From an uncultured Gammaproteobacteria bacterium (GTDB lineage Bacteria > Patescibacteriota > Microgenomatia > UBA10105 > UBA927), in NCBI GenBank assembly GCA_964639945.1, contig CAZXHY010000003.1, forward strand, positions 1 through 54,439: a DNA stretch of 54,439 nucleotides, given 5' to 3'. Below are positions 40,561-47,658 of this stretch, piece after piece (the stretch's first letter is position 1; each line of letters starts with the position of its first letter). The notes under the pieces are model-generated. The model was not told where the DNA came from. It made no database searches and saw only the letters and a program-made list of their open reading frames with translations. Both the position numbers and the translations under genes were made by a program.

Positions 40561-42585
40561 CTACTGGATGGTAATCTCAAACTGAGTGCTAAGCATATCT
40601 ACCATACGAGCGTGTATAGGGCGCACATCTTGCGCAGAAAGCGATGTCGATGGGTCACTGTACGTGATACGCAGTGAACGATTTTGTTCATATACGTCTA
40701 CCAGTTCGACTTCTTGGATTTTAGGATCTAGCGCGCGCAGAGCGGTGATGATGTCCCCCACTCTGGTGTTCTCCGTTACTGCGAATGTGATGTCTTCCAT
40801 CATTGGCGGGTAAGATGGTGCGATACTGTAGGGTTGTGACTGGCGCATGGGACTATCCGCGAGCGCTGAGAGTGACAGTTCCGCAACAAATGTTTCTGAA
40901 GGGATCGAGAGAGCAGATGCAATACGCGGATGTAGACGGCCAAATGATCCGATAACTTTTGTTTCAATCGTAATATTTCCTTGAATATCGGGATCAATGC
41001 TAGGATGTGTGCCACGGTTGGTCACATGCACATCGGAAAGACCCAAATTTCTAAGCAAGCCTTCTACGACACCACTTAAATCATAGAGGGTAAGCGCTCG
41101 AGGTTGCTTGTTCCACGAGGTTGTGGAAAGCTCACCGTGCATGATAAGTCCTAAGGCGTTTGTTTCCTCATAGTGTTTCTTTTCTTTTGCGTAGGTTTTT
41201 CCTATTTCAAATAATGCTATTCGTTTTTGGCGGAATCCAAGGCTGCGCTTGGCATAATCAACTAGGTTTGGTAACAGTGTGGGCCGCAATGTCGCTATCC
41301 CAGAATCTGGCGCATTTACGAGTGTTATCGGTGTGGCAAATGATCCGCTCTCTTGGTAAAGTGTGATTTGAGTGTTTGCGATGAGTGTTGAAGTGATAAC
41401 CTCATTGAGCTGCATGGTGATCAATCCATCCCGTACTCTATCCTCAAACAATACGTGTGTTGGTGTGCCCACAGTAGGCAGTTTGCCTGATAATGTTTCC
41501 ACAGGAATTTTCTCATATCCATAGATGCGTACGACTTCTTCTACGATATCCGCTTCATATTGAATGTCTGTTCGGAATGTAGGAACCGTTACCATGAGGG
41601 TAGATCTTTTCGACGTAACCTTGCATTGCAGGTTTTTGAGAATTGTAATGATTTCTTTGTTGGGAATAGATATGCCAACGAGTCTCGTAACAGTCAGCGG
41701 ATTGAATGCAATGATCGTTGGCGAAACAGGATTTGGATAATAGTCTGATACGTCACTTGTCACTTTTCCCTCTGCGATTTCTTCTAAAAGTTTGATTGCA
41801 CGAGCAAGAGTAAATGGTAGCTCTTCTGGATCTTGGTGTTTTTCATGTCTTCCACCGCCTTCTGTGCTTATTTTGTGTCGGCGTGCTGTGCGCCTGCAAT
41901 TTCCCCCATCGTAGACTGCAGTTTCTAAAAGTATAGATGTTGTAGAATCTGTGACTTTTGTTTTGGCGCCACCGATACAGGTAAGGCATTGGACGCCGCT
42001 ATCGTCGCAAATAGCGATATCTTCTGCTGTCAGTTTTACAGTCGTTCCCTGCTGAATAGTTTCAAATTTTTCGCCAGCTTTGGCCATGCGAAGGAAAAGT
42101 GTCTTTCCTTTTAGTTTATGCGCATCGAACGCATGCATCGGGTGACTGGTCTCTACCATGATGTAATTGGTTACATCGACGACATTATTGAGTGGTTCGA
42201 TGCCATAAGCCTTTAATCGTTTGGCTAGCCAATCGGGTGATGGTTTTACAACTACATCTAGTGTGACTCCTATATACCGTTTTACGAGTCCCTCTACCGA
42301 CTTATCTGCTTTTATAAGTGGTGATTTGGGGTTTGTTTTGGGAAGCTTGGCTACGCGTGGTAACGTAAGCGGCGTATTAAACACAGTGGAAATATCCCGT
42401 GCGACACCGATAAGCCCAAACATGTCTGCACGGTTTCCACGAAGTTCTAAATCTATGACTATTTCCCCTTCCACAATTTTGCGTTTGTCGAGCATGTGTC
42501 CAATCATGGTGAGTTTATCCGTCAGATCTGCTTCTGATTTTGGAAGTTTTACGTATTCGGATAGCCATGAAAGTGGTACGTTCAT
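40561..42585 (-). CDS. pheT: Phenylalanine--tRNA ligase beta subunit (lacks the B2 OB-fold tRNA-binding domain)
   Basis: 674 aa. The B1 start MNVPLSWLSEYV runs straight into IDLELRGNRADMFGLIGVARD, which occurs at about residue 150+ in E. coli PheT. B3/4, B5 and the C-terminal FDX-ACB-like regions are present. Confidence 0.9.
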   Translation of the reverse strand: MNVPLSWLSEYVKLPKSEADLTDKLTMIGHMLDKRKIVEGEIVIDLELRGNRADMFGLIGVARDISTVFNTPLTLPRVAKLPKTNPKSPLIKADKSVEGLVKRYIGVTLDVVVKPSPDWLAKRLKAYGIEPLNNVVDVTNYIMVETSHPMHAFDAHKLKGKTLFLRMAKAGEKFETIQQGTTVKLTAEDIAICDDSGVQCLTCIGGAKTKVTDSTTSILLETAVYDGGNCRRTARRHKISTEGGGRHEKHQDPEELPFTLARAIKLLEEIAEGKVTSDVSDYYPNPVSPTIIAFNPLTVTRLVGISIPNKEIITILKNLQCKVTSKRSTLMVTVPTFRTDIQYEADIVEEVVRIYGYEKIPVETLSGKLPTVGTPTHVLFEDRVRDGLITMQLNEVITSTLIANTQITLYQESGSFATPITLVNAPDSGIATLRPTLLPNLVDYAKRSLGFRQKRIALFEIGKTYAKEKKHYEETNALGLIMHGELSTTSWNKQPRALTLYDLSGVVEGLLRNLGLSDVHVTNRGTHPSIDPDIQGNITIETKVIGSFGRLHPRIASALSIPSETFVAELSLSALADSPMRQSQPYSIAPSYPPMMEDITFAVTENTRVGDIITALRALDPKIQEVELVDVYEQNRSLRITYSDPSTSLSAQDVRPIHARMVDMLSTQFEITIQ

Positions 42586-42588
42586 AAT

Positions 42589-44346
42589 TTAGTCCTTATA
42601 TCCTATGTCTCCGTTATATAAAGCTCTGATATCTGATATGCCATATCGTTGCATGACGATGCGATCGAGCCCCATCCCCCAAGCAAATCCTGAGTAGACT
42701 TGTGGATCTAAGCCCGCTTTTATGAACATGTTTGGATGTACCATGCCGGCTCCCAGCATTTCTATCCAGCCGCGCCCTTTGCATACAGTACATCCTTTTT
42801 TGTTACAAAATGCGCAGCTTATATCCACCCCGACTCCCGGCTCAACTTGTGGATAGTATTTACAACGAAATCGTGTCTCACGTGTAGACCCAAAGAATTT
42901 TTTTACAAATACATCGAGAGTACCTTTCAGTTGGGCGAGCGTTATATCTCGACCTACTGCCATGCCTTCGTATTGATAAAACATGATGTTATTGGTGGCA
43001 TTGGCATTTTCATATCGATATACCTTCCCCGGTATGACATATCGAAATGGCGGTGCAACTTCAGCCAACAAGTGACTTTCAACCGATGAAGTATGGGTGC
43101 GTAGTAGCCAGTTGGGCTCTTCGATATAGAGAGAGTCTTGTAGGTCACGCGCCGGATGATCCAGTGGAAGATTGAGTCTGTTGTAGTTATATTCATCATT
43201 TTCTATCTCAGGGCCATCGGCGACAGAAAACCCCATAGACTGAAAGATATCGTTCATTTCGCGAATGACTATGGTCGTGGGGTGCAAGTGTCCCTGTAGG
43301 GGTATATGACCTGAAAGTGTGATGTCTATGGTTTTTGTGTTTGTTTCTGTTTTTTTTGTCGCATTTGCTTGTTCTAGTGCTGATTCAATGACAAGCTTTA
43401 CTTGATTGATAACGATACCGACAGATTGTCTGTCTTGTGGGGGAACACCTTTTATAAGACGCGTCACGCTAGCGAACTCGCTTTTAGCCCCGAGCACTTC
43501 GAGTCTGAGCAAATCTGGCGCAGTTGTAGATGAAGCGATGTATGCGATAGCACTTTGTTGTACATCTAATAATTTTCCGGTAAGTTCTGCTGAGGTAACA
43601 GATGAAGAAATGATTTCTGTGGATACTTTTTCTTTATGCATGGATTCTATTTGATAGTACACACGGACGTGTTCGCCATCATTGGCAACCTCAGAAATGA
43701 TGATGGGTCCAACCTCGGATGCGGAGTGCACTTGTGTACCGCCGTCTGGGATTGGTGCGAAATCTCCCACTGTCAAAATACGAAGCGGTTTGTTTTTGGG
43801 CAAATGAGCGGGCACCCATGCGGCTCGTTTCATAAGCTCATCCAGACTTACAAATTCACAAACAAGCGTTGCATTTTTGGAAACAATTTGGTTCGCTTCC
43901 TTTTCGATAGCAAATTTTTTGTCTATGGTTAGACTGCCGATATATTCAATATAGGGCTTATCTCCGTGTTCACCCTTGAGTGGAGTTATATTTGGATCAA
44001 CAAGTTTTACTGCTTCGTGGATTATATGACCTGCGCTATGGACGCGCATGTTATGAAAGCGCGTGTCCCAATCAATCGTGGTGGTCACCTCGTCGCCGCT
44101 AGCCAGTTCTCCGGTCAGCGTGCATTCGTGAATCGCGACATCTTCGACGAGTCGAACATGGGTGACTTTGGCCAGCCCTTTGGGACCTACAATCGTACCT
44201 TTATCCGAAGGCTGTCCACCTCCTTGGGGATAAAAAATAGTTCGGTCAAGCGTTATCTCCCAATGTTTACCTTTTTTACTTACTGCAACAATTTTTGCAG
44301 TTAATTCTTTTTTGTAACTATCTGATAAATAGATAAGTTCTGTCAT
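42589..44346 (-). CDS. pheS: Phenylalanine--tRNA ligase alpha subunit with an N-terminal AlaX-M-like (Thr/Ala-tRNA synthetase editing, SAD) domain fusion
   Basis: The start is trimmed to the ATG at 44346 (MTELIYL...). The N-terminal 250 aa or so show LDRTIFYPQGGGQPSDKG and MRVHSAGHIIHEAV (HxxxH). The remainder is canonical PheS (coiled-coil arm, HPARD, class II motifs, GAGMVHP). Confidence 0.88.
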   Translation of the reverse strand: MTELIYLSDSYKKELTAKIVAVSKKGKHWEITLDRTIFYPQGGGQPSDKGTIVGPKGLAKVTHVRLVEDVAIHECTLTGELASGDEVTTTIDWDTRFHNMRVHSAGHIIHEAVKLVDPNITPLKGEHGDKPYIEYIGSLTIDKKFAIEKEANQIVSKNATLVCEFVSLDELMKRAAWVPAHLPKNKPLRILTVGDFAPIPDGGTQVHSASEVGPIIISEVANDGEHVRVYYQIESMHKEKVSTEIISSSVTSAELTGKLLDVQQSAIAYIASSTTAPDLLRLEVLGAKSEFASVTRLIKGVPPQDRQSVGIVINQVKLVIESALEQANATKKTETNTKTIDITLSGHIPLQGHLHPTTIVIREMNDIFQSMGFSVADGPEIENDEYNYNRLNLPLDHPARDLQDSLYIEEPNWLLRTHTSSVESHLLAEVAPPFRYVIPGKVYRYENANATNNIMFYQYEGMAVGRDITLAQLKGTLDVFVKKFFGSTRETRFRCKYYPQVEPGVGVDISCAFCNKKGCTVCKGRGWIEMLGAGMVHPNMFIKAGLDPQVYSGFAWGMGLDRIVMQRYGISDIRALYNGDIGYKD

Positions 44347-44401
44347 AGCATTAGTTTTATTATTGTACGTGTACCGCAATAGCCTTGGCAAGATCAACGA
44401 C

Positions 44402-44683
44402 TTATTTGGTTTTTCTATCTCTCCTTCTCGTTTTCATGGCGATAAGCGCCTCTTCTGTAGACGGGTACAGACGATCGCCAAGCCATTTTATAATTCGAGA
44501 TTTTCTACTGTCACTAATTTCATCATGAAACTTCAATAATCTACGTGCTCGTTTTCGAAATATCTGTAGGCCCCCTTCAAAATCTCCGTCTCTCACAAAC
44601 CGCAGACGGAGTAGCCCTTTGCGATAGAGCTCTTTTCCGTGATTTATTCGAACATCTTTTGATGGTAGTGATTTTTTTTCCAT
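44402..44683 (-). CDS. Small basic hypothetical protein
   Basis: 93-aa ORF rich in Arg/Lys. Its ATG directly abuts the U-tract of the upstream terminator, and an A8 run follows the start region. Confidence 0.4.
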   Translation of the reverse strand: MEKKSLPSKDVRINHGKELYRKGLLRLRFVRDGDFEGGLQIFRKRARRLLKFHDEISDSRKSRIIKWLGDRLYPSTEEALIAMKTRRRDRKTK

Positions 44684-44710
44684 AAAAAAACCCCGCTTGT
44701 TTGCGGGGTC
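44684..44710 (-). terminator. Rho-independent terminator (GACCCCGC-AAACAA-GCGGGGT + U7)
   Basis: On the minus strand, a 7-bp GC-rich stem and 6-nt loop are followed by TTTTTTT. It lies downstream of rplT. Confidence 0.75.
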
Positions 44711-44735
44711 CTCGTGTGCGTTATGTTTTTAGGCT

Positions 44736-44804
44736 TTATGCACAGAAAATCACCCCGCTTGGCGAGGTAAAGTAAAACCATGCTGAGACTCGGATATTTG
44801 TCAT
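44736..44804 (-). CDS. Candidate 22-aa leader peptide MTNIRVSAWFYFTSPSGVIFCA
   Basis: Hand translation. The ATG is 1 nt after the rplT stop (TAAcATG). It carries the aromatic cluster W-F-Y-F immediately 5' of hairpin segment 1, and its stop codon is 15 nt past segment 2. Confidence 0.3.
   Translation of the reverse strand: MTNIRVSAWFYFTSPSGVIFCA
44741..44767 (-). promoter_or_regulatory. Upstream hairpin CCUCGC-CAA-GCGGGG followed by UGAUUUUCU (weak terminator or attenuator segments 1:2)
   Basis: A 6-bp stem with one G-U pair. Its 3' arm with flanks (CAAGCGGGGT) is an exact 10-nt repeat of the 3' arm of the main terminator, so it can also pair with the CCCCGC arm at 44703-44708. Confidence 0.45.
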
Positions 44805-44805
44805 G

Positions 44806-45156
44806 TTAGTTAACAGATTTAACCTCTTCGAGAATTGCATCAAACGTAGATGCGTCTTCGACGACGAGATTTGCGAGTGTTTTGCGATCAAGCTCTATGT
44901 TTGCTCCTTTGAGTTTGTGGATGAACGCATTGTAGGAAAGTCCGCGCATTTTTACGGCTTCTGAGATACGAGTAATCCAAAGCTGTCGGAAATCTCGTTT
45001 TCTGTTTTTGCGACCAGCAAATGCGTATTCGCCAGCATGCAAGTATGCTTCTGTAGCCACAGAGATAAGTCTGCGGTTGGTCATTCTGTAGCCTTTGTTG
45101 GCTTGGAAGATTTTATTGTGTTTTGCTTTTGATGCTACTCCTCGTTTAACGCGCAT
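44806..45156 (-). CDS. rplT: 50S ribosomal protein L20
   Basis: 116 aa starting MRVKRGVASKAKHNKI. Confidence 0.95.
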   Translation of the reverse strand: MRVKRGVASKAKHNKIFQANKGYRMTNRRLISVATEAYLHAGEYAFAGRKNRKRDFRQLWITRISEAVKMRGLSYNAFIHKLKGANIELDRKTLANLVVEDASTFDAILEEVKSVN

Positions 45157-45168
45157 AAGATGCTCCTT

Positions 45169-45366
45169 TTAGTTTTGTAAAAATGTCTTTAGTTTTTTAG
45201 TAATTTTGGCTGAATCCAATTTTCGTGGATGATCTTGTCTTCGTTGTCTCGCTTTACTCTTGCGTCTTCGCAAATGTCGTGCGCCTTGTGCTCGATACAT
45301 AAGATCACCATTTTTGGTGACTTTGAATCGCTTGGCTACAATTTTTTTCGTCTTCATTTTGTGCAT
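45169..45366 (-). CDS. rpmI: 50S ribosomal protein L35
   Basis: 65 aa. MHKMKTKKIVAKRFKVTKNG matches the MPKMKT..AKRFK.T pattern. Confidence 0.92.
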   Translation of the reverse strand: MHKMKTKKIVAKRFKVTKNGDLMYRAQGARHLRRRKSKARQRRQDHPRKLDSAKITKKLKTFLQN

Positions 45367-45371
45367 AGTGT

Positions 45372-45932
45372 TTATTTTATAACCATTTCTGGTTTCTCTG
45401 CTTTTGCTTCTGCTTTTTTATCGCTTACTACCATGGCTGCAAGGACTCTTCCTTCCATCCGTGGCTCTCGAACCAATTTTACGACTCCGAGGTCTTTGAT
45501 AAAGCGATTAAGCACTTCAAATCCAAATTGTCGTCTCCCTAGCTCTCGACCCTTGAACATTACATTTACTTTTACTTGATTGCCGTGCTCTAAAAATTCT
45601 AAAGCTTTCCGCAATCTCGTGTCAAAGTCGTGTTGCCCTATAAATGGTCGCAGGCGAATCTCTTTGACGCCGACATTCTTCTGCGTCTTTTTTGCGTCTC
45701 GTTCCTTTTTCGCCTCTTGGTAACGAAACTTCTTGTAATCTATAAGTTTTGCAACTACTGGCTTTGCGTTTGGACCAATTTCTACCACATCCAAACCCAA
45801 TTCCTTTGCTTTCTGCAACGCTTCAATCTTTGAAACGATGCCGATTTGCTTACCTGTGTCATCCAGAAGCCGTATTTGTGGGCTCTGAATTTGATAATTT
45901 ATTCGGTAAAACTTATTCAACTTTCCTTTCAA
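45372..45932 (-). CDS. infC: Translation initiation factor IF-3 (TTG start)
   Basis: 186 aa. It shows RINYQIQSPQIRLLDD (compare RIN.EIR..EVRLI) and conserved N- and C-domains. The start codon TTG at 45932-45930 lies 20 nt inside the thrS 3' end. Confidence 0.9.
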   Translation of the reverse strand: MKGKLNKFYRINYQIQSPQIRLLDDTGKQIGIVSKIEALQKAKELGLDVVEIGPNAKPVVAKLIDYKKFRYQEAKKERDAKKTQKNVGVKEIRLRPFIGQHDFDTRLRKALEFLEHGNQVKVNVMFKGRELGRRQFGFEVLNRFIKDLGVVKLVREPRMEGRVLAAMVVSDKKAEAKAEKPEMVIK

Positions 45933-47658
45933 TCTCCTCGTTCAGATTCGCAAGAAATTCCGAAAGAGCCATACTCTTTTGGTCTCCCCCGCTTCTGGTT
46001 CGTACTGAAATCGTTTGTTGCTCGACTTCTTTATCTCCAATTATAGCTAAGTATGGCACCTTTTGCAACGTAGACTCTCGGATTTTTTTGGAGAGTGGAT
46101 CGTTTTTGAGATTGAGCACGACGCGAATACCTGCGTCTTTGAGCGCTTTGGTCGTCATTTCGGCAGCTTCGGCATGGCGTTCGGAGATAGGAATCACGAC
46201 AACCTGCTCTGGAGCCATCCAAAGTGGAAATGCCCCGCCGTATTGCTCGATAAGGACAGCTAAAAATCGATCAAATGATCCTAAAATAGCCACATGTAGT
46301 ACTGCTGGGCGCTCAGACTTGCTCTCTTCATTTATATAGGAGAGGTCAAAGTTTTCTGGCTGCACAAAGTCCAGCTGGCACGTGGTCAGCTGCCATTCTC
46401 GGCCAAGCGCGTCTTTGACCATGATGTCTATTTTCGGGCCATAAAATGCCGCTTCCCCTTCCCCTACAAAGTAGGGTAATTTGAGGCGTTTAGCTGCCTC
46501 TTCTAGGGCATTTTCTGCCTTATCCCACACCTGTGGGTCTCCCATGTATTTATCAGGATTTTTGGGATCTCGGACAGAAATTCTGGCGCGATAACTGCTA
46601 AATCCAAATGTTTTGTAGATATATAGGGCAAGATCGAGAATTCGATCTATTTCCTCGGCTATTTGGGTGTGTCGCACGAAGATGTGTGAGTCGTCTTGGG
46701 TAAGCGCTCGTACTCGCAAAAGACCATTTACCTCTCCGGCCTTCTCATATCGATAAACCGTCGCGTTTTCTGCGATTCTTAGAGGAAGCTCTCGATAACT
46801 TCGGGGTCTCTCATTGTATATCTGAAAATGATGTGGGCAGTTCATGGGTTTGACCACATAATCGTCTTCGTCGATTTTCATAGGCGAAAACATGGCATCG
46901 TATTTTTGCCAGTGGCCGCTTTTGATGTATAAATCACTTTTGGCTACATGAGGCGTCCATACAAATTGATAGCCACGATTTTCTTTTTCGCGTGTTATCC
47001 ATTGTTCAAGAGCTCGTCTGAGCAAAAATCCTCGAGGCATATAGAGCGGAAACCCAGCTCCCACATCAGGACTCACTAAAAATAATTCTTGTTCCTTGCC
47101 AATTTTTTTGTGATCTCTTTTTTTGGCCTCTTCCTGCATGAGGAGGAAGTTCGCTAATTCTTCTTTTGTTGGAAATACTGTTCCATAGATGCGGGTAAGC
47201 ATTTTATTTTTTTCGCTCCCACGCCAATAAGCACCAGCAACTGACAAAAGTTTAAAGTGCTTTAACTCATGGTCAGGGTGCTCGCAGTGTCCTCCACGAC
47301 AAAGATCTATATATTCACCAGATTGGTAGAGGGTAAGCGATTGCCCTTCTCCAGAAAATTCTTCTATAAGTTCTTTTTTATATTCATTATCCTCAAAAAG
47401 TTTCAGTGCCTCATTTTTTGAAATATCTTTTCTTTCAAAAGATTTCCAAGTTTTGGAAAGTTCACGCATTTTTTGGTCTATGCGGACAAAATCTGCTTCT
47501 GAAACTTTTGTATCACCGAAATCAAAATCATAATAGAATCCATTTTCTATGGCAGGACCTATGGTGCGTTTGGCCTTGGGGTACAGTTCCAGAATTGCCG
47601 CCGCCAAAAGGTGTGCACAGGAATGACGTAAATGATCGAGTTGGTCAGTGTTGTCCAT
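45913..47658 (-). CDS. thrS: Threonine--tRNA ligase (no N-terminal TGS domain)
   Basis: 581 aa. It begins directly at the editing domain (HLRHSCAHLLAAAI, an HxxxH motif), followed by the class II core and an anticodon-binding domain. Confidence 0.93.
   Translation of the reverse strand: MDNTDQLDHLRHSCAHLLAAAILELYPKAKRTIGPAIENGFYYDFDFGDTKVSEADFVRIDQKMRELSKTWKSFERKDISKNEALKLFEDNEYKKELIEEFSGEGQSLTLYQSGEYIDLCRGGHCEHPDHELKHFKLLSVAGAYWRGSEKNKMLTRIYGTVFPTKEELANFLLMQEEAKKRDHKKIGKEQELFLVSPDVGAGFPLYMPRGFLLRRALEQWITREKENRGYQFVWTPHVAKSDLYIKSGHWQKYDAMFSPMKIDEDDYVVKPMNCPHHFQIYNERPRSYRELPLRIAENATVYRYEKAGEVNGLLRVRALTQDDSHIFVRHTQIAEEIDRILDLALYIYKTFGFSSYRARISVRDPKNPDKYMGDPQVWDKAENALEEAAKRLKLPYFVGEGEAAFYGPKIDIMVKDALGREWQLTTCQLDFVQPENFDLSYINEESKSERPAVLHVAILGSFDRFLAVLIEQYGGAFPLWMAPEQVVVIPISERHAEAAEMTTKALKDAGIRVVLNLKNDPLSKKIRESTLQKVPYLAIIGDKEVEQQTISVRTRSGGDQKSMALSEFLANLNEEIERKVE

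Follow-up and report, generated by a model that had tools for sequence, protein, structure and literature searches.

The gene described here encodes PheS, the alpha subunit of phenylalanyl-tRNA synthetase (PheRS), extended at its N-terminus by a domain that resembles the trans-editing protein AlaX-M. It lies in a stretch of 54,439 nucleotides from an uncultured bacterium of the Patescibacteriota (contig CAZXHY010000003.1; the whole stretch that was analysed is hereafter called the window), in the local order thrS-infC-rpmI-rplT-(93-residue open reading frame)-pheS-pheT, with 3 bases between pheS and pheT. The fused arrangement is common to a clade of tiny uncultured bacteria. The fusion is a single open reading frame (ORF) of 585 residues on the minus strand, running from an ATG at 44346 to a stop at 42589-42591. 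An in-frame TTG at 44397, 51 bases before the ATG, would give an alternative product of 602 residues; this start is unlikely, since MTELIYL is where both the AlaXM profile and the homologous proteins start. The strings LDRTIFYPQGGGQPSDKG, MRVHSAGHIIHEAV, DGGTQVH and DHPARD were all found in the translated 585-residue ORF. The parts of the gene and its neighbours are the following.

42589..44346, minus strand: whole gene including its stop, a 585-residue PheS whose N-terminus carries the AlaX-M-like domain (ORF, Pfam, NCBIfam).
43648..44346, minus strand: AlaX-M-like domain, residues 1-233, beta-barrel subdomain and editing core (NF040865, AlphaFold2, Foldseek).
44026..44040, minus strand: HSAGH, the retained HxxxH motif (H103, H107; alignment, checked by translation).
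43732..43746, minus strand: DGGTQ instead of CGGTH (D201, Q205; alignment to solved chains, checked by translation).
43594..43647, minus strand: linker, residues 234-251 (about 18), predicted to be disordered (predicted local distance difference test score, pLDDT, below 50 at residues 238-247).
43345..43593, minus strand: PheS N-terminal helical arm, residues 252-334 (PF02912; helices 252-334 in the model).
43297..43356, minus strand: approximate recombination breakpoint, residues ~331-350 (sliding-window identities change partner).
42592..43329, minus strand: PheS class II catalytic core, residues 340-585 (PF01409; 89% identity to the unfused PheS of genome G018).
42781..42816, minus strand: CxxC...CxxC knuckle within the PheS core (sequence).
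40561..42585, minus strand: pheT, 674 residues; B3_4, B5, CLM and FDX-ACB present, B2/tRNA_bind absent (Pfam, alignment).
44402..47658, minus strand: upstream same-strand genes, namely the 93-residue ORF, rplT, rpmI, infC and thrS (ORF list, Pfam).

A fusion of an AlaX-M-like domain to a complete PheS had been proposed in a sequence-only reading of this DNA, and both halves were recovered by Pfam, NCBIfam and Foldseek. Pfam matches the PheS core (PF01409, residues 340-582, E 5e-81) and the PheS arm (PF02912, residues 279-333); residues 18-94 match the last part of PF01411, the AlaRS model. The NCBIfam profile for PheS, TIGR00468, scores 252 bits over residues 304-582, against a curated cutoff of 237.45; the class II core with its N-terminal helical arm, the adjacent pheT and the Foldseek matches to PheS chains agree with this assignment. 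The NCBIfam AlaXM profile NF040865 is matched over positions 1-233 of 234 by residues 1-233 (E 8e-41), scoring 140 bits with the entire protein and 143 bits with the isolated domain, short of the equivalog cutoff of 300 bits. AlphaFold2, given 62 fused homologues, produced a model with a mean pLDDT of 87.5. Residues 1-233 are mostly above 90, residues 238-247 fall below 50, and helices 252-334 and then the core follow. With the whole model as query, Foldseek ranked PheS chains first and AlaX or AlaRS matches from rank 39 onwards. The N-domain superimposes on AlaX-M 9iuw with a target TM-score (TMt) of 0.88 and a root mean square deviation (rmsd) of 2.3 Å, on 3kew with a TMt of 0.83, and on the AlaRS editing domain 2zze with an rmsd of 2.4 Å across 249 columns, and it thus has both the beta-barrel subdomain and the editing core fold of AlaX-M.

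The likeness to AlaX-M (P. horikoshii 2E1B, P. furiosus 9IUW; NF040865) comprises the same two-subdomain fold, the same length, a full-length profile match, the GGGQ loop, HxxxH, an aliphatic shell residue and many further positions. The differences, besides the shortfall in profile score, are that AlaX-M is free-standing whereas the present domain is carried by PheS, that CxGxH is replaced by DGGTQ, and that the present domain has an invariant Met100 and lacks the conserved Lys/Arg at position 219.

The two ends of the fused gene have different relatives. When the fused sequence P0001 was compared with 61 fused proteins, N-domain identity fell smoothly from 86% to 35%, and core identity was bimodal, 78-98% in seven clusters and 36-56% in the other 54. 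The core is 89% identical to the unfused PheS of G018, a genome of the same family and another genus, but the arm is only 40% identical. Fused genes of the same genus are 50-65% identical in the N-domain but only 34-38% in the core, and sliding windows put the switch of partner near residues 335-350. PheT goes with the lineage of the core: it is 58% identical to the PheT of G018 and ~30% identical to same-genus PheTs. Judged from these identities, the fused pheS is a recombinant whose N-domain and arm resemble those of same-genus fused genes and whose core derives from another lineage. The lineage switch at the core therefore suggests that the appendage was kept, or was re-joined, across replacement of the core. 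G018 also encodes, elsewhere in its genome, a free-standing protein with the Asp-type motif defined below. Over residues 376-450, the core is 97-100% identical to an unfused PheS of another genus (related locus L099, 415-1494).

Such a two-lineage mosaic could in principle come from the chimeric assembly of co-occurring strains, and the fusion itself from a missed stop, a frameshift or a chimeric contig that made one gene out of two. Against this, the AlaXM/arm boundary is crossed by contigs of four out of four sequencing runs (X1-X4, all from one study, of which two possibly represent the source sample), with 0 differences and 0 indels. X3 and X4 bridge that boundary, and single contigs of X1 (42817-44336) and X2 (42443-43964) run through both it and the recombination point, again with 0 differences. 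Seven further database clusters (P0002, P0004, P0006, P0007, P0008, P0010 and P0029) have a mosaic of this type, their cores being 78-98% identical. A search of 5.8 billion proteins with residues 1-250 gave 314 matches, the best 120 of which were compared: 118 are full-length AlaXM-PheS fusions and the other two are short fragments. The junction, which the sequence-only reading had singled out as the place to look for a stop or frameshift, contains neither. The AlaXM-PheS fusion is confirmed as a genuine single gene, and an artefactual joining is so improbable as to be negligible.

The altered motif was likewise read correctly from the letters: where a change of Cys to Asp and of His to Gln had been claimed, the HMMER alignment to solved AlaX-M and AlaRS chains places DGGTQ exactly on CGGTH, and HSAGH on HxxxH. 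Of the two motifs that mark editing domains of the AlaRS/ThrRS type, HxxxH is therefore present as HSAGH (residues 103-107) and DGGTQ occupies the place of CxGxH. The best 120 of the 314 relatives read DGGTQ (117) or DGGTH (3). Conservation was assessed in 259 of 269 proteins from two homologue searches, those covering at least 200 domain residues (10 partial sequences were left out), and these were divided by the residue at position 201 into an Asp type (n=145, a count inflated by close relatives of the query) and a Cys type (n=114). All 145 Asp-type domains have G43, Q45, D48, R96, M100, H103, H107, R189, D201, G202 and G203, and 144 have H127, K186 and Y231. Position 205 is His in every one of the 114 Cys-type domains; in the Asp type it is Gln in 133, His in 7, Ile in 3 and Leu in 2. 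The two types are further told apart by M100, where most Cys-type domains have Ala/Ser, by W93, by G128, where the Cys type has Pro, and by position 219, which is Lys/Arg in 95 of the 114 Cys-type domains and variable in the Asp type. This pattern indicates that the Asp-type site is maintained by selection and has not decayed.

According to PMC12003907, the Cys of CXGXH is catalytically important in AlaRS/ThrRS-type editing domains and is a target of oxidation, and Zn is dispensable for deacylation and shields the Cys from oxidation. The same text holds that the residue equivalent to T172 of PhoAlaX-M sets whether the site is shaped for Zn, being aliphatic in the AlaRS type and Tyr in the ThrRS type. 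The equivalent residue here is L191, aliphatic throughout, as in Zn-competent AlaRS-type domains and not Tyr as in ThrRS-type ones. The two His and the Asp may still hold a metal. The HXXXH/CXGXH motifs are described there as invariant across life from the last universal common ancestor on, and the Asp/Gln version is therefore an exception to the rule as stated there.

The distribution of the domain was examined at three depths. In a set made up of the window's own genome and 40 relatives, 25 of the 41 genomes have a match. Eighteen of the matches are in frames of 575-645 residues, which are PheS fusions, one is in a 942-residue PheT fusion, five are in free-standing genes of 235-256 residues, none of them beside pheST, and one is in a fragment. 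The same search did not find the domain in 6 of the 17 other genomes of the genus. At class level, 24 of 301 evenly sampled genomes have a match at E <=1e-25, comprising 10 of PheS-fusion size, one PheT fusion, eight of free-standing size and five other or fragmentary. Across the phylum, 14 of 401 genomes have a match, and none besides the window's own genome has one of PheS-fusion size; the remainder are eight of free-standing size (counted without regard to Asp or Cys type), three fusions to class IIb synthetases and two ordinary AlaRS (G338 and G682, long-frame matches identified by Pfam). A contig search for related loci gave, among the matches listed (600 stretches), mostly distant free-standing AlaX genes and two close loci. 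In the samples searched, the PheS fusion occurs in a single class, and there only patchily. The sequence-only reading had allowed that the novelty would fall were the fusion already common and well annotated: common it is, within one Patescibacteria class (18 of 41 relatives, 10 of 301 class genomes), but it is not annotated as such and goes under plain PheS names. Where source labels are given for the best 120 of the 314 relatives, no name goes further than 'phenylalanine--tRNA ligase subunit alpha', and the organisms given are Candidatus Gottesmanbacteria or the Patescibacteria group. Current annotation hides the architecture, because automatic names say plain PheS and Pfam tRNA_SAD, which is found in the ThrRS and AlaRS of the window's own genome, mostly misses the domain.

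PheS is one of several hosts. The 250-residue domain was searched against 1.84 billion cluster representatives, giving 8567 matches at E <=0.001 and 56 at E <=1e-30, and the best 150 were compared. These best 150 include N-terminal PheS fusions and free-standing proteins of ~240 residues, the latter of both Asp and Cys type. Among them the domain also stands at the C-terminus of PheT in P0127, P0139, P0150 and P0155 and in the fragment P0138, all of Asp type, and a Cys-type domain is carried by a class IIb synthetase (P0224) and by an IF-2B-family protein (P0263). Six further PheT fusions, P0284-P0289, were identified from precomputed Pfam families (P0284, P0287 and P0289 were re-scanned); five of the six have the Asp motif by pattern and P0287 falls outside it. 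A shared-word homologue search with a PheT fusion returned only the query among PheT fusions. In total, PheT C-terminal fusions amount to about 11 clusters and one genome (G035). Among the PheS fusions, P0277 has the canonical CGGTH, and P0124 is a Cys-type fusion lacking H103, K186 and R189. In a quick maximum-likelihood tree of 155 domains (LG+G4; unrooted, with weakly supported deeper branches), 39 of the 41 Asp-type rows fall with four Cys-type rows in one group of 43 (Shimodaira-Hasegawa-like approximate likelihood-ratio test, SH-aLRT, 90). This group contains 23 PheS N-terminal fusions, five C-terminal fusions (four scanned, PheT by Pfam) and free-standing forms. The tree intermixes free forms with fusions to PheS and to PheT, so fusion and fission occurred more than once.

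Several of these hosts have features of their own. P0150 (1089 residues) has a tRNA_bind/YtpR-like domain moved behind the FDX-ACB domain of PheT and followed by the Asp-type AlaXM. P0270 and P0283 are bacterial TrpRS with an N-terminal Asp-type AlaXM, each from a single metagenome cluster on a short contig, and in P0283 a PheT-type B3/4 domain lies between AlaXM and TrpRS, which puts two editing-type folds on one class I synthetase. Long frames of G618, G666 and G553 were considered as PheT fusions and rejected, Pfam identifying them as class IIb synthetases with a C-terminal AlaXM (and DUF2000 in G618 and G666). Three class IIb synthetases of this kind from another family of the phylum (L128 453-3458, L129 642-3773, L130 145-2604) have an oligonucleotide-binding (OB) anticodon domain and an Asp/Lys/Asn-type core before the C-terminal AlaXM. 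Two of the three have DUF2000 before AlaXM, and the motif position reads CGGTH in one and DGGKS in one. The DGGKS of the G553 fusion is outside the DGG[T/V/I/L][Q/H/L/I] set and outside the tree.

The partner subunit is itself unusual. The PheT of the window lacks B2/tRNA_bind by Pfam, and its alignment to T. thermophilus PheT skips residues 35-152; by length and alignment, all 18 PheTs examined lack B2, whether the domain is present or not. Five residues of the PheT editing site are named in PMC8599791 (Arg244, Asn254, His265, Glu334 and Thr354). The PheT of the window has Glu130 at the place of Arg244, normally tRNA-contacting, and keeps the other four. Of the 18 aligned PheTs, 17 deviate at one or more of the five residues, mostly with Phe for the Tyr-discriminating Glu334; canonical editing of Tyr-tRNAPhe may be altered across the class. 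Two simple explanations of the domain were considered and rejected: compensation for a missing B2, since the short form is common to all 18 aligned PheTs, with the domain or without it, and, as a sufficient explanation, compensation for a lost beta editing site, since the deviations occur in 11 of 11 genomes with an Asp-type domain and in 6 of 7 without.

Proofreading by bacterial PheRS is assigned to the beta subunit, and the earlier claim that an extra Ala/Thr-type editing module on alpha departs from the textbook enzyme is upheld. The reading that I favour, at a probability of roughly 55%, is that the domain is an extra, flexibly tethered and cysteine-free aminoacyl-tRNA deacylase or editing site on PheRS. 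A complete AlaX-M-type deacylase domain, followed by a disordered linker of ~18 residues and then by the arm and the catalytic core, would hydrolyse wrongly acylated tRNA as it leaves PheRS (post-transfer), alongside the editing by B3/4 on the beta subunit, a site that is atypical in this lineage. The active site of the AlaX-type domain is free of cysteine, with His103 and His107 kept, Asp201 standing for the Cys and Gln205 for the second His. The analysis shows how the protein is built and folded, that its site is conserved, that the domain is repeatedly linked to PheRS and that the gene is of mosaic origin; catalysis by the domain, tRNAPhe as its target and the amino acid removed are what I infer. 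AlaX-like chemistry would have been retained because the architecture and fold are intact and the pocket is strictly conserved. The function would be tied to the host synthetase because the domain has been attached repeatedly to PheRS subunits, and to TrpRS, and has been retained across replacement of the core. Compared with the B3/4 domain of the beta subunit, the AlaX-type domain belongs to the same enzyme, is encoded in the same operon and presumably serves the same task on mis-acylated tRNAPhe, but it has an unrelated fold and sits on the other subunit, and in this genome B3/4 has Glu at the Arg244 place.

Several observations weigh against this reading. Asp may not substitute for the catalytically important Cys. 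The domain is dispensable and patchy, as the counts given above for relatives, class and genus illustrate. The deviations of the beta editing site do not track its presence. The predicted template modelling score (pTM) of the AlphaFold2 model is 0.45, the N-domain lying without confident packing against the rest of the protein, and no fixed packing between the modules is therefore predicted. The Asp type occurs on TrpRS as well, in two clusters (P0270, AlaXM-TrpRS; P0283, AlaXM-B3/4-TrpRS), and Cys-type AlaXM occurs on class IIb synthetases within the phylum, so that the association is not exclusive to PheRS. Lastly, the only studied AlaX-like domain on a synthetase other than AlaRS or ThrRS, that of Plasmodium TrpRS, is required for tRNA binding and aminoacylation and does not edit, according to PMC3680381; by analogy, the domain on PheS might do the same.

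If hydrolysis had been lost together with the Cys, the domain would be a non-catalytic appendage that helps PheRS to hold tRNAPhe. The PheS arm to which it is joined contacts tRNA in the T. thermophilus complex, and one may add that the PheT of the window has no B2/tRNA_bind and that the PheT fusion P0150 has tRNA_bind beside AlaXM. The absence of B2 from all 18 PheTs, with or without the domain, takes away much of the meaning of the former. The replaced Cys is the residue described as important for catalysis (PMC12003907), and the apicomplexan precedent is close in design, the AlaX-type domain (AXD) of TrpRS being likewise tethered by a linker to the N-terminus of an aromatic amino acid synthetase. 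However, the Plasmodium AXD is of the short AlaX-S type and has lost all four ligands (PMC3680381), whereas the domain on PheS keeps HxxxH and the rest of the site. Here H103, H107, R96 and R189 are found in 145 of 145 Asp-type domains and H127 and K186 in 144, a conservation hard to square with bulk RNA binding, and a purely tRNA-binding role seems unlikely.

The editing deacylase tethered to PheRS, which remains the favoured reading, must also be set against the rest of the editing apparatus of the genome (1.24 Mb, 94% complete). Its only other AlaX-fold domains are the AlaRS editing core and the ThrRS N2 domain, both with canonical motifs. These domains have a homologous fold and are used in cis by a class II synthetase, N-terminally in ThrRS as in PheS, but their motifs are called invariant (PMC12003907), whereas the domain on PheRS has its Cys and His replaced. 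No free-standing AlaX was found in this genome, and D-aminoacyl-tRNA deacylase (DTD, PF02580) was not found in its 94%-complete sequence; two YbaK/INS-type matches were found in its long frames. AlaRS (contig C13, L001 1486-3108, minus strand) is a short form whose editing core (HTAHH/CGGPH) directly follows the tRNA-recognition part, without the beta-barrel subdomain and without the C-Ala domain. ThrRS (window 45913-47658, minus strand; 581 residues) starts with its N2 editing domain (HSCAH, then CRGGH) and has no N1/TGS.

A generic AlaX might be parked on PheRS, clearing Ser- or Gly-tRNAAla in trans, with PheRS as no more than an abundant scaffold or co-expression partner. The missing DTD and free-standing AlaX, the shortened AlaRS, the free-standing members of the same clade that lie away from pheST in five relatives and the fusion of AlaXM to several different synthetases in the phylum would all fit. 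Yet AlaRS retains an editing core of its own, with HTAHH and CGGPH. The Asp type departs from the Cys type precisely at the Cys and His positions, at M100 and at 219, and the synthetase partners found for the Asp-type clade are PheS, PheT and TrpRS only, the DGGKS fusion of G553 lying outside the clade set. A generic role appears unlikely.

A bolder proposal is that the Asp-type AlaX-M clade constitutes a dedicated cysteine-free proofreading module for aromatic amino acid synthetases, recruited several times (to PheRS alpha, to PheRS beta and to TrpRS), which would remove a non-standard aminoacyl group beyond the reach of B3/4. I advance it tentatively, as a minority view. Such a module, having no Cys, would be oxidation-proof and possibly Zn-independent, and a hydroxylated aromatic or beta-hydroxy amino acid is one possible target. 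If this were true, the 'invariant' CXGXH would have an exception in nature, one that would show how a catalytic Cys can be replaced. The favoured reading of a tethered editing site has a precedent in PMC13149037, which describes AlaX-family deacylases acting on tRNAs other than tRNAAla, namely BesG on tRNAThr and AlfB on tRNAMet; these illustrate re-targeting of the family to other tRNAs and to non-standard amino acids. BesG and AlfB are free-standing and lie in biosynthetic clusters, whereas the present gene belongs to the thrS-infC-rpmI-rplT-pheST operon, with no biosynthetic cluster around it. In PMC13149037 a length filter was applied so that stand-alone proteins were retained, a step that would leave out fusions. 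For AlaX-type domains the AARS Online paper names AlaRS, ThrRS and free AlaX only, and neither a PheRS with an AlaX-type domain nor an Asp-type site was found described in the full-text literature, a search that did not extend to subscription journals and supplements (PMC12003907 alignments, PMC13149037 tables).

With an AlaX-type module on its alpha subunit (in relatives the module sits on beta or on TrpRS), PheRS gains a second, unrelated editing-type fold. A clade with Asp for Cys and the rest of the site frozen is a natural experiment on the roles of the Cys and of the metal. The fusions also show how bacteria with small genomes put a trans-editing factor to new use, attaching it to one synthetase or another.

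Two further features of the locus deserve mention. The interval between rplT and pheS holds a putative ORF for a basic protein of 93 residues (44402-44683, minus strand), without a Pfam match. The PheS core contains a CxxC-x4-CxxC knuckle, CAFCNKKGCTVC, whose C511, C514, C519 and C522 are nearly invariant in the 62 aligned fused PheS; it is probably a small metal-binding insertion.

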